Origin: Escherichia coli
GTDB taxonomy: Bacteria; Pseudomonadota; Gammaproteobacteria; Enterobacterales; Enterobacteriaceae
Direction: 5' to 3' (one strand)
Length of the DNA stretch: 64,000 nt
NCBI RefSeq assembly: GCF_013315695.1
Contig: NZ_CP054353.1
Made by a program: the position numbers and the translations under genes
In this document: positions 1,853-4,625 of the stretch, piece by piece
Numbering within the stretch: the stretch's first letter is position 1
How the letters are laid out: each line of letters begins with the position of its first letter
The notes under the pieces: generated by a model
Told to the model about the DNA's origin: nothing
What the model saw: only the letters and a program-made list of their open reading frames with translations
Databases searched by the model: none

Positions 1853-3283
<1,431 letters not shown>

Positions 3284-3451
3284 GCTCTGCCTCAGCGCCG
3301 CCTTCTCAGAAAAGAGTCGGCGCTGAAATTCTCCTTTCGTTCTGGAAAGCGCCTCGCATAATCTGAAGAAAACCAATGTAATACGCACATCTGGATTGTT
3401 ACCGGCAGATGCCCGGCGTATAGCTGATTCCATTATTCAACACTGCGCCAT

Positions 3452-4566
3452 ATGAAGGGACAGATAATGGAATCGCTCTCAGAAGGAACCACAGCAGGCT
3501 ACCAGCAAATCCACGACGGCATTATTCATCTGGTCGATAGCGCCCGGACGGAAACGGTACGTAGTGTTAACGCGTTAATGACCGCCACATACTGGGAAAT
3601 TGGCCGACGAATTGTCGAATTTGAACAAGGTGGCGAGGCCAGGGCTGCGTATGGTGCGCAGCTAATCAAGCGACTATCAAAGGATTTACGTCTAAGGTAT
3701 AAGCGTGGGTTTTCCACCAGGAATTTATGGCAGTTTAAGAATTTTTATATTTGTTTTCAACGAATTGAAATTGTGCAGACACTGTCTGCACAATTCGCCA
3801 GACACTATCTGGCGAATCTTGCCATTTAGCGCAACTGGCCAAATCCTTCCCCCTGCCCTGGTCCACTTACGTCCGTTTGCTTTCTGTTAAAAACGCTGAC
3901 GCTCGTAGCTTTTATGAGAAAGAGACACTCCGCTGTGGCTGGTCTGCTCGTCAGCTCGAACGGCAAATTGCGACCCAATTTTATGAGCGGACACTACTGT
4001 CACATGACAAATCAGCCATGCTGCAACAACACGCTCCTGCCGAGACGCATATTCTTCCGCAACGGGCGATACGCGATCCCTTTGTGCTCGAATTTCTGGA
4101 ATTGAAAGATGAATATTCAGAATCCGATTTTGAGGAGGCGCTGATCAACCACCTGATGGATTTCATGCTGGAACTTGGGGATGATTTTGCCTTTGTTAGT
4201 CGACAGCGAAGGTTACGCATTGATGACAACTGGTTTCGTGTCGATCTGCTGTTTTTCCACCGCCGTTTACGCTGCCTGCTAATCGTCGATCTAAAAGTGG
4301 GCAAATTCAGCTATAGCGATGCCGGACAGATGAATATGTATCTCAACTACGCCAAAGAGCACTGGACGCTACCGGATGAAAATCCGCCCATCGGTCTGAT
4401 TCTCTGTGCAGAGAAAGGAGTCGGAGAAGCGCATTATGCACTGGCTGGTTTGCCTAACACCGTTCTGGCGAGTGAATATAAGATGCAACTACCTGATGAA
4501 AAACGACTCGCGGATGAACTCGTTCGAACACAGGCGGTGTTAGAGGAAGGCTATAGACGCCGTTAA
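3452..4566 (+). pseudogene. yhcG: yhcG-like DUF1016/PDDEXK-type protein, split into two frames (3452-3829 and about 3769-4566)
   Basis: Two adjacent ORFs in different frames together cover one YhcG-like protein; the conserved LPWSxY...ARSFYE segment lies in the downstream frame; frames overlap at a palindrome-rich segment. Confidence 0.6.
3769..3817. repeat. two overlapping perfect palindromes (P1 3769-3795, P2 3793-3817) with shared core CAGACAC(T)(G/A)TCTG
   Basis: Read directly: AATTGTGCAGACAcTGTCTGCACAATT and ATTCGCCAGAcactaTCTGGCGAAT. Confidence 0.8.
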
Positions 4567-4581
4567 TTTCAGCAGTTTCGA

Positions 4582-4606
4582 ATTCTCCAGACACTGTCTG
4601 GAGAAT
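4582..4606. repeat. third palindrome (P3) of the same family, in the convergent yhcG/yhcH intergenic region
   Basis: ATTCTCCAGACAcTGTCTGGAGAAT, near-identical to P2 including the trailing AATCTT. Confidence 0.8.
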
Positions 4607-4625
4607 CTTTAAAACGAACTAAGTT

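Follow-up and report, generated by a model that had tools for sequence, protein, structure and literature searches.

Self-complementary coding units of the DUF1016/YhcG family and a 13-bp deletion among them in Escherichia coli yhcG

Coding palindromes and the yhcG locus

Palindromic sequences within functional coding regions have been described in several settings. Like the unit described below, Rickettsia palindromic elements (RPEs; Ogata et al. 2000, 2002, cited in PMC4316617) are palindromic DNA that lies in frame inside genes and is translated without destroying the protein; as far as they are summarised in PMC4316617, they are selfish elements of 100-150 nt, dispersed over unrelated genes and intergenic sites of one genus. 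PARCELs share with the unit the arrangement as tandem intragenic repeats with coding dyad symmetry and with variable copy number and peptides, and they encode amphipathic domains of 25 residues that form long arrays in membrane or surface proteins and spread horizontally. Hairworm mitochondrial genomes likewise contain perfect inverted repeats within functional coding regions, where the demands of protein and nucleic-acid structure have to be reconciled; these reach up to 284 bp, occur genome-wide in a few mitochondrial genomes, and both of their arms encode conserved protein (PMC6649704). Related palindrome biology is treated in PMC4245961 and PMC3315005. Here we describe palindromic units of 25-27 nt in yhcG, a gene of the DUF1016/YhcG family, starting from a 64,000-nt stretch of an Escherichia coli chromosome (RefSeq assembly GCF_013315695.1, contig NZ_CP054353.1), referred to as the window in its full length. 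Taken as a whole, we consider it probable that yhcG of the window was broken by a 13-bp deletion among copies of a family-wide hairpin unit, and that this unit acts in cis as a stem-loop under selection.

In the window, yhcG is preceded by gltD (1865-3283) and followed by nanQ/yhcH, nanK and nanE on the minus strand. An earlier analysis of the bare letters (the sequence-only reading) had recognised a yhcG-like gene, with which Pfam and the RefSeq annotation agree. It had also placed a frameshift in this gene, with a stop at 3827-3829 and the C-terminal part in another frame, and these coordinates were confirmed, as were the 41-nt string at 3794-3834 with GCACAA before it and GCGCAA at its end, and three related palindromes, P1 to P3. 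The features concerned are as follows.

3467-4566, plus strand: yhcG, a pseudogene in this strain, encoding DUF1016_N and a YhcG_C PD-(D/E)XK nuclease; annotated as frameshifted
3769-3795, no strand assigned: U1 (= P1), AATTGTGCAGACACTGTCTGCACAATT, a perfect 13+1+13 palindrome encoding (E)IVQTLSAQ(F); covariance model score 45.3 bits
3789-3796, no strand assigned: deletion junction, the sole surviving copy of CACAATTC, with CACAATTCACCCC (13 bp) missing according to the alignment to intact allele L002
3793-3817, no strand assigned: U2 (= P2), ATTCGCCAGACACTATCTGGCGAAT, a 10+5+10 palindrome that reads IRQTLSGE in intact allele L002 and is out of frame here
3827-3829, plus strand: premature TAG, product of the frameshift (from ORF 3452-3829 and the sequence)
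3835-4566, plus strand: out-of-frame rest of yhcG (LAKSFPLPWSTYVRLLSV... as far as the native stop) with the entire nuclease domain (from the open reading frame list, translation and alignment with intact proteins)
4567-4611, no strand assigned: P3, a non-coding relic linker unit; its perfect 12+1+12 palindrome (4582-4606, ATTCTCCAGACACTGTCTGGAGAAT) lies 16 nt past the stop

Origin of the frameshift and unit number in E. coli

The closest intact allele (strain 1517k, 370 aa) has the same sequence across the region but carries 13 extra bases, CACAATTCACCCC, between P1 and P2, and it reads the 41 bp in frame as IRQTLSGESCHLAQ. The lost 13 bp correspond to one copy of the 8-bp direct repeat CACAATTC plus a 5-bp spacer; the parental two-unit allele has 8-bp direct repeats at a distance of 13 bp, one supplied by the tail of U1 (…GTCTGCACAATTC) and the other by the head of the following unit (CACAATTCGCC…). 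Because loss of one direct repeat together with the spacer is the classic footprint of slipped-strand mispairing, we infer that such mispairing between two neighbouring stable hairpins would have removed them. The loss shifts the frame and leads to a stop 12 codons on: the N-terminal open reading frame (ORF; 3452/3467-3829) ends ...IVQTLSAQFARHYLANLAI* at the TAG, and the uninterrupted frame expected of a functional yhcG is lacking. The RefSeq record, which is identical to the window, labels the coding sequence 'PDDEXK nuclease domain-containing protein, frameshifted'. The 121-nt form with the junction was found in 6/5,426 complete E. coli genomes, and the 134-nt form of the same allele class in about 470. 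An assembly error as source of the frameshift was ruled out because the same junction recurs in six independently assembled complete genomes. Judged by these results, yhcG of the window was inactivated by a real, recent and derived deletion of 13 bp.

The sequence-only reading had taken the 41-bp segment for extra DNA, for instance a miniature palindromic element of the MITE or RPE type inserted into an intact yhcG. The frame does open once 3794-3834 is removed, and the segment holds a palindrome that resembles one outside the gene. However, the intact 370-aa allele, longer by 13 bases, reads through these 41 bp in frame, and the opening of the frame upon excision is a coincidence, 41 being the sum of 23 (the remnant of one 36-bp unit) and 18 (six codons). 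The junction that excision would create (SAQ/LAKSF) is absent from all homologues aligned; one-unit orthologues have ES..L.QLAK. Nor is the unit dispersed: with P3 as query a median of one and at most four places per E. coli genome were retrieved, all explicable as yhcG units, the only sites in 64 kb are those of yhcG, and the codon register is the same in homologues of many phyla. The differences between alleles are whole in-frame units or deletions, not the presence/absence polymorphism with empty site and target duplication that an insertion would leave. We therefore give an insertion next to no credence. The short duplication suggested for the junction does exist in the form of the 8-bp repeat but marks the 13-bp deletion, not a 41-bp insertion. 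Of the three explanations then offered, templated duplication came closest, P2 being a tandem copy of the P1 unit. We regard the palindromes as copies of a hairpin unit, not as foreign DNA.

Allowing up to two mismatches, the core CAGACACTGTCTG occurs in the window in the three palindromes only (6 strand-matches versus 0.92 expected; 0/100 shuffles reach 6). A covariance model of the unit matched only P1 (45 bits, E 3e-11) and P3 (41 bits, E 5e-10), and P2, which overlaps P1, gave a partial match; U2 can alternatively be drawn with 12 pairs and one C·A mismatch. The predicted fold of U1 has -16.3 kcal/mol as RNA and -12.1 as DNA (z about -5), that of U2 -14.7 kcal/mol as RNA. P3 and the sequence on its 5' side show homology to the linker, and their translation would give FQQFRILQTLSGES; this region is similar over 40 nt to the surroundings of U1 and 90% identical over 29 nt to U2. 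Several other identities were considered for the palindromes and rejected: (i) an intrinsic terminator, for P3 or the internal units, as a scan of P1-P3 called none and the hairpins, although stable, have no T-tract (CTTTAAAACG follows P3); (ii) a LexA box (CTG-N10-CAG spanning P1/P2) and (iii) a γδ/Tn3 resolvase half-site (TGTCYNNTA), both candidates whose match was weak or wrongly oriented; (iv) a dispersed repeat of the REP/BIME, ERIC, MITE or RPE type, as P1/P2/P3 were the only copies in 64 kb and elsewhere only linker copies or gene-adjacent relics were seen.

In protein alignments, close homologues carry one, two or three tandem copies of a unit of 12-13 codons, I-x-Q-T-x-S-A/G-E/K/Q. 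One unit is present in Salmonella, Citrobacter, Kluyvera and some E. coli (357-358 aa), two in the allele class of the window (370 aa), and three in 382-aa alleles. K-12 (375 aa) likewise has three, of a different version. E. coli alleles have 1-3 units with a tandem period of 36-39 bp. Among 47 cases of successive units, the spacing is 39 nt in 33 and 36 nt in 6. Strain O157:H7 F7386 (349 aa) lacks 78 bp which correspond to units 2-3, and an O111 strain has a frameshifting loss of 80 bp. Indels, truncations and relics cluster at the units. Length polymorphism of yhcG serves as a marker in the LSPA-6 lineage typing of E. coli O157:H7, a literature that uses the gene as a marker only (PMC3514354). 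The typing alleles concern the same gene and differ by small indels, and the O157 length variants examined here differ by the 78-bp loss of units 2-3; the marker indel would thus be located in this unit region.

Further rearrangements were observed at the locus. In BL21/Rosetta (L006, 2927-3400) yhcG is cut exactly at the 3' edge of unit 3 (…GTCTGCCAAAT/TGAGAGG…), and the C-terminal half together with P3 is replaced by approximately 470 bp with a 101-aa ORF annotated 'transposase'. In strains TUM2805 (L007) and 23CRST013 (L009) an IS3-family insertion splits yhcG, or DUF5682/VWA and two small hypothetical genes replace most of yhcG and its upstream region. The yhcG alleles of E. coli are about 96% identical outside one divergent patch of approximately 125 nt, which begins 60 nt before unit 1 and includes the units (window 3712-3838 versus L003 535-800; window class STRNLWQFKNFYICFQRIE, K-12 class SAKNLRQMRLFYLFFQHVE). 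The patch of the window resembles Pseudocitrobacter, which suggests an imported mosaic segment.

Conserved complementarity in the family and its possible causes

The family was surveyed in species-representative genomes (80 loci) and in 14 plasmid homologues. The 80 loci span Enterobacteriaceae, Burkholderiaceae, Coxiellaceae, Propioni- and Bifidobacteriaceae (Actinomycetota), Acidobacteriota, Planctomycetota, Verrucomicrobiota, Chloroflexota, Cyanobacteria and Bacteroidota, and almost all of them contain 1-3 long, near-perfect palindromes at one shared position of the gene. In total, 125 units were found in 78 loci from about ten phyla, that is in 78/79 loci that include the region. The consensus is ATT-NNN-CAGAC-NNN-GTCTG-NNN-AAT; the unit always lies within the same DUF1016_N loop, and its centre is always the first base of a codon. 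Perfect 12/12 odd palindromes are concentrated in the linker, which holds 46/49 of those present in 309 kb of loci. Of the 14 plasmid genes, whose products are 28-40% identical to YhcG, 13 have the protein motif L[SP]W.H; this motif was used as the only anchor and the palindrome was not sought. In 13/13 cases 8-11 of 11 Watson-Crick pairs were present at the predicted register (about 2.75 expected by chance), and the Leu/Ile codon of the motif always starts with a pairing-compatible base (TTR Leu or ATY Ile), never CTN. The cores of these distant genes and the corresponding peptides differ: CGTGAC/GTCACG (VVTLSRQ), CGTATC/GATACG (LVSLIRE), GCAGCA/TGCTGC (VQQLAAQ), CCACCA/TGGTGG (VHQLGGQ) and CCAACA/TGTTGG (VQQAVGQ). 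From the pairing kept in distant homologues with different cores and peptides it would follow that the unit is as old as the family and that compensatory change has rewritten the peptide. A Tth111I-like core, GACNNNGTC, was dismissed as a restriction site: it is common among cores but missing from those with ATC/GAT, GCA/TGC and ACA/TGT. Several of the plasmid genes (L133, L136, L135, L128, L132, L134) lie directly after, and overlap, the end of an integrase or recombinase gene, or between hsdM and hsdS. These contexts fit the reported enrichment of DUF1016 beside inversion-targeted genes (PMC9881135).

Complementarity between the arms was quantified for 93 distinct units. Of all cells, 90.8% were paired, compared to 76.3±0.7 after shuffling and 24-43% in slid controls. 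Changes on both sides occurred at 11/12 pairs, in 161 cells versus 59.8±6.6 in shuffled units, and the covariation score was 0.365 versus 0.118. Position k=1 showed no covariation (0.57 versus 0.50 expected), and pairing ended at k=12-13, which points to a structure with a stem of 11-12 bp and a 3-nt loop. To avoid circularity from choosing units by their palindrome, tests were also run on units selected by the core only and, as above, on those anchored at L[SP]W.H. In the core-only set the outer pairs were Watson-Crick in 76.5%, compared to 56.4±1.25% upon permutation; position k=7 was CG in 53 and GC in 48 units, and all four pair types (TA/CG/GC/AT) were seen at k=8. The units thus show the compensatory changes expected of a selected nucleic-acid stem-loop, as judged by shuffle-based statistics on related sequences. 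Pairing-preserving swaps of the core include CCGAC/GTCGG, GGAATC/GATTCC, CGCAA/TTGCG and CGAGAC/GTCTCG, and the unit peptides vary widely (IVQTLSAQ, IFQTVSGK, IWQTLSAK, PIVVTLSRQ, FVQQLAAQ, FVHQLGGQ, ILVSLIRE and others). Residue x2 and residues 7-8 change together (V…AQ, F…GK, L…GE, W…AK, P…AE, A…AQ, S…AK). Codon usage within units is strongly biased: the Ser codon is TCT in 114/117 units (97%) versus 10% elsewhere in the same genes, the Gln codon is CAG in 109/111 units versus 70% elsewhere, and the Thr codon ACC occurs in no unit versus 35% elsewhere. These patterns argue that self-complementarity of the nucleic acid, rather than the peptide, is conserved.

Relics of the unit were also found outside reading frames. 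In E. coli, P3 is a perfect palindrome in both allele classes, CTCC…GGAG in one and CTGC…GCAG in the other, and in each class it matches the U2 stem, a case of concerted evolution of a non-coding copy. Other relics are located after two Gemmataceae paralogues and before an Arthrobacter gene. Units duplicate in tandem and leave relics beside the genes, P3 among them. In the Arthrobacter plasmid (L140), two relics of different DUF1016 subfamily types (108-136, 232-256) lie in a 235-nt region upstream of an intact DUF1016 gene; they would read RVQHPVALL and AIVQTPSGQW, and a further unit-like palindrome is present inside the gene at 779-801. Independent functional sites were considered for the extragenic copies and rejected, as inspection revealed DUF1016 linker relics or, in Rufibacter, the unit of a neighbouring second DUF1016 gene. 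A Moraxella osloensis plasmid (L141) has three copies of another palindrome, AAACTGTGGCAAATTGCCACACTTT (141-169, 188-214, 1218-1242), which surround a truncated DUF1016 gene and adjoin a ParB gene; these copies look unrelated to the unit and may serve in partition or as iterons.

The unit is restricted to this gene family. In 333 kb of homologous loci, every match of the covariance model with E <1e-3 was a linker unit or a relic beside the gene. Rfam 15 returned no meaningful match at E up to 10 for the window region or E up to 1 for 12 homologous loci, the only hits being chance matches to snoRNA and miRNA models far under their gathering scores. A scan of viral contigs with ATTNNNCAGACNNNGTCTGNNNAAT gave 40 matches, 24 of them within YhcG-like genes and another 3-4 within remnants of genes where the unit has survived. 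About 12 stand-alone perfect palindromes on viral contigs were set aside as likely unrelated hairpins or terminators and do not count as evidence for free-living units. Two viral contigs, L111 (~3740-3810) and L098 (7563-7587), have unit-like perfect palindromes outside any recognisable DUF1016 gene, which may be relics or unrelated hairpins; in L111 two of them are arranged in tandem, read FQTPSGKLVARPIGQTVSG and lie upstream of a portal-like ORF. No earlier account of a palindrome or hairpin in DUF1016, YhcG or COG4804 was found in the full-text literature searched.

Selection on the protein alone, with the palindromes as by-product of a repeated conserved peptide motif (I-x-Q-T-x-S-A/G-K/Q/E), would agree with the frame-locked position of the motif, with the frequency of QT.S in the subfamily and with the location of the unit within a Pfam domain. 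We nevertheless judge it highly improbable: synonymous sites are set by pairing, as seen with the Ser and Thr codons, and, as complementarity demands, changes in x2 are accompanied by changes in the codon 7 wobble base and at the first position of codon 8. In addition, other subfamilies keep the pairing with a wholly different peptide (VVTLSRQ, VQQLAAQ, LVSLIRE, NAVRSE), the non-coding P3 is still a perfect palindrome with a compensatory change, and the peptide is predicted to form a flexible loop. A double-stranded operator for a symmetric dimeric regulator could account for a perfect dyad with conserved blocks (ATT, CAGAC) that is present in several copies within and beside the gene, and the sequence-only reading had proposed clustered protein-binding sites. 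In such an operator half-sites are conserved and non-contacted positions vary independently, whereas the non-conserved positions k=7-9 of the unit covary between arms, units of one gene differ at k=7-9, and cores differ among subfamilies; the site also lies about 300 nt into the coding region. Binding sites in the form of a simple dimer operator are thus very unlikely. The stem might alternatively act in cis as an mRNA hairpin, be it a site for RNase III or another double-strand-specific nuclease, a ribosome pause between sub-domains or a stability element, with P3 as stabiliser in the 3' untranslated region, where it indeed lies. Predicted RNA folds are very stable (-15 to -16 kcal/mol per unit versus -10 to -12 as DNA; -59 for the three K-12 units together), and a 3-nt loop with a free k=1 suits a hairpin better than a duplex site. 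Selected RNA stems normally tolerate wobble pairs. Among 101 non-Watson-Crick cells, however, G·T (16) was not in excess over A·C (18), so that the G·U tolerance expected of such a stem was not seen in this small sample of 34 events; moreover, there is neither a U-tract nor an Rfam family, and relics upstream of genes in other taxa are palindromic too. We rate an mRNA hairpin as a minor contender.

A palindrome without function might also perpetuate itself in a permissive loop, kept and duplicated by template switching and by conversion between arms and units. Quasi-palindrome correction is reportedly an established mutational pathway of E. coli (Lovett laboratory). The two arms do change together, each E. 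coli allele class has one stem common to U2 and P3, some stems reach 15-18 bp, and tandem duplications and indels are numerous. On the other hand, a single codon register is kept over about ten phyla and in several subfamilies whose proteins are 28-40% identical, the stem is uniformly 11-12 bp with no general extension past k=13, the palindrome is near-universal in the genome loci and the distant homologues, and few other comparably strong palindromes are present in the 309 kb. This explanation is accordingly unlikely, though a serious one. We see still less in the idea that DUF1016 genes exchange or replace halves at the hairpin, either through breakage that a hairpin or cruciform stimulates or through the action of a site-specific enzyme. 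It would make sense of the relics that adjoin intact genes in Escherichia, Gemmataceae and Arthrobacter (there two of different subfamilies), of the BL21 breakpoint at the edge of a unit, of the E. coli units and P3 that bracket the C-terminal module, and of the integrase or recombinase genes directly upstream of several plasmid homologues. A chimera in Caballeronia humi (L027, 1501-2613) has also been counted in its favour: compared with Paraburkholderia (L029/L030), the N part and linker are about 65% identical, identity rises to 95-98% between PLPWS and the stop codon, and the similarity does not continue past the gene end. However, its left breakpoint lies at the start of the conserved PLPWS, at the end of the variable linker and not at the unit, so that a domain swap exactly at the hairpin was rejected and ordinary homologous recombination suffices. 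Most loci are without a flanking copy, and no recombinase adjoins chromosomal yhcG. The centre of 1-3 nt is too short for the core sites of tyrosine recombinases.

The preferred explanation, a cis-acting stem-loop under selection, has to be held against several points. The sequences are related and the shuffle controls ignore phylogeny; the units used for covariation were partly chosen by palindrome score, and the core-only and motif-anchored tests that mitigate this are smaller. What looks like compensatory evolution could be produced by a self-perpetuating mutational process, with template switching or with conversion among arms and units, and the concerted change of U2 and P3 in E. coli looks like conversion. 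The family-wide claim is based on 94 loci, a subset of DUF1016 genes. With respect to the nature of the stem, a DNA-level hairpin/cruciform or perfect duplex is favoured over a wobble-tolerant mRNA structure because mismatches are strand-symmetric and relics stay palindromic outside the reading frame; most of our confidence goes to DNA, a clearly smaller part to RNA, and a still somewhat smaller part to the neutral palindrome. Here, too, the sample of G·T versus A·C is small (34), coding constraints could distort it and an mRNA role is possible, and arms of 11-12 bp are near the lower limit for cruciform extrusion. The hairpin itself is predicted from the sequence, and its binding or cutting by a protein would be a further, hypothetical step.

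The gene product and comparison with known systems

The intact 370-aa allele (the window plus 13 bp) matches Pfam PF17761 (DUF1016_N, E 1.6e-42) and PF06250 (YhcG_C PD-(D/E)XK nuclease, E 3.8e-56) as well as the PADLOC candidate defence family PDC-S02. An AlphaFold model built from a 56-sequence alignment, after one from 26 close sequences had been too poor, reached a predicted local distance difference test score (pLDDT) of 79 overall; residues 103-119, which are encoded by the units, scored <50 and are flanked by confident helices. They are therefore predicted to form a permissive, flexible loop of the DUF1016_N domain. A PDB sequence search retrieved no relative, and a structural search with the N domain gave no informative match; by predicted fold, the nuclease is likened to NucS/Hjc, enzymes of structure-specific type. 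According to Hu et al., synthetic lethality results when ΔyhcG is combined with dnaB, dnaN and parE hypomorphs (PMC2672614).

In the window, yhcG lies directly downstream of gltD, separated by a spacer of 183 nt (3284-3466). K-12 has yhcF (DUF1120) upstream of yhcG, and the strain of the window lacks at least yhcF there, as do the O157 and 1517k loci. In K-12, the antisense non-coding RNA G0-10703, which is activated in stationary phase, overlaps the 5' untranslated region of yhcG by 128 bp (PMC7967276). The region of this RNA, the yhcG 5' region, corresponds to approximately 3300-3470 in the window, where the upstream neighbour differs.

As to function, the unit may be a self-recognition or autoregulatory site for the structure-specific-type nuclease encoded by the same gene. 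Strict co-occurrence with the family and the NucS/Hjc-like fold are circumstantial hints that suggest action of YhcG on its own unit; we commit to this as a weak, tentative guess. As a by-product, the unit would be a local hotspot for slippage, gain and loss of units and rearrangement breakpoints, the frameshift of the window being one example. Somewhat more doubtful still is the wider proposal that the family carries an ancient in-frame hairpin/cruciform recognised by its own nuclease, i.e. a self-contained module of nuclease and cis-site for autoregulation, self-inhibition or gene-diversifying breakage and recombination. If true, it would be an intragenic analogue of an antitoxin or operator, with a segment of a Pfam domain dictated by DNA self-complementarity and not by protein function, and such a nuclease with its own site would be categorically new.

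The pseudogene itself is ordinary: yhcG of the window is a recent pseudogene formed by a 13-bp slippage deletion in a small E. coli lineage. Tandem hairpin units in a loop would explain the length polymorphism of yhcG as a typing marker. The 'conserved peptide motifs' in family alignments (QT.S, VQQ.V.Q, VVTLSRQ) may be shadows of a DNA element. The family is common in restriction-modification loci, defence islands, plasmids and phages. Its unit would offer a clean natural case of nucleic-acid structure overriding the protein sequence of a domain, and a first concrete handle on an uncharacterised nuclease family, with the hairpin as candidate substrate or regulator.

Among systems in which a structured repeat is tied to an enzyme, the ToxI RNA of type III toxin-antitoxin loci is non-coding, lies upstream of an endoRNase gene and consists of 5.5 repeats of ~36 nt that form pseudoknots. 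Tandem structured repeats of ~36 nt, compared with a unit period of 36-39 nt, and the link to a nuclease gene in defence islands are reminiscent of yhcG. Unlike ToxI, however, the units, usually 1-2 simple hairpins, form part of the reading frame for a PD-(D/E)XK DNA-nuclease-like protein, so that they do not qualify as a ToxI element. Nor do they correspond to integron attC sites, which are imperfect palindromes of 57-141 nt with extrahelical bases, a position at cassette boundaries and a cognate integrase; the units are short and near perfect, the window locus has no integron integrase, and integrases adjoin only some plasmid homologues. Quasi-palindrome template switching and slipped-strand deletion between short direct repeats are generic mutational processes in E. 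coli that operate at arbitrary sequences. They produce such 13-bp deletions between 8-bp repeats beside hairpins, and concerted changes of arms, but leave the fixed position of the palindrome in the family across phyla unexplained.

The unit also departs from each of the coding palindromes described at the outset. Unlike RPEs, it measures 25-27 nt, belongs to one gene family, keeps one codon register across phyla and is not dispersed. In contrast to PARCELs, the units of yhcG number 1-3, comprise 12-13 codons each, lie in a nuclease loop, are inherited with the family and evolve by compensatory change between arms. Unlike the hairworm palindromes, it is a short hairpin in a permissive loop of one bacterial family in which the peptide follows the DNA. 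What sets the yhcG unit apart from RPEs, PARCELs and hairworm palindromes is thus its small size, its confinement to one family, a register that is the same across phyla, and compensatory evolution that drags the peptide along.

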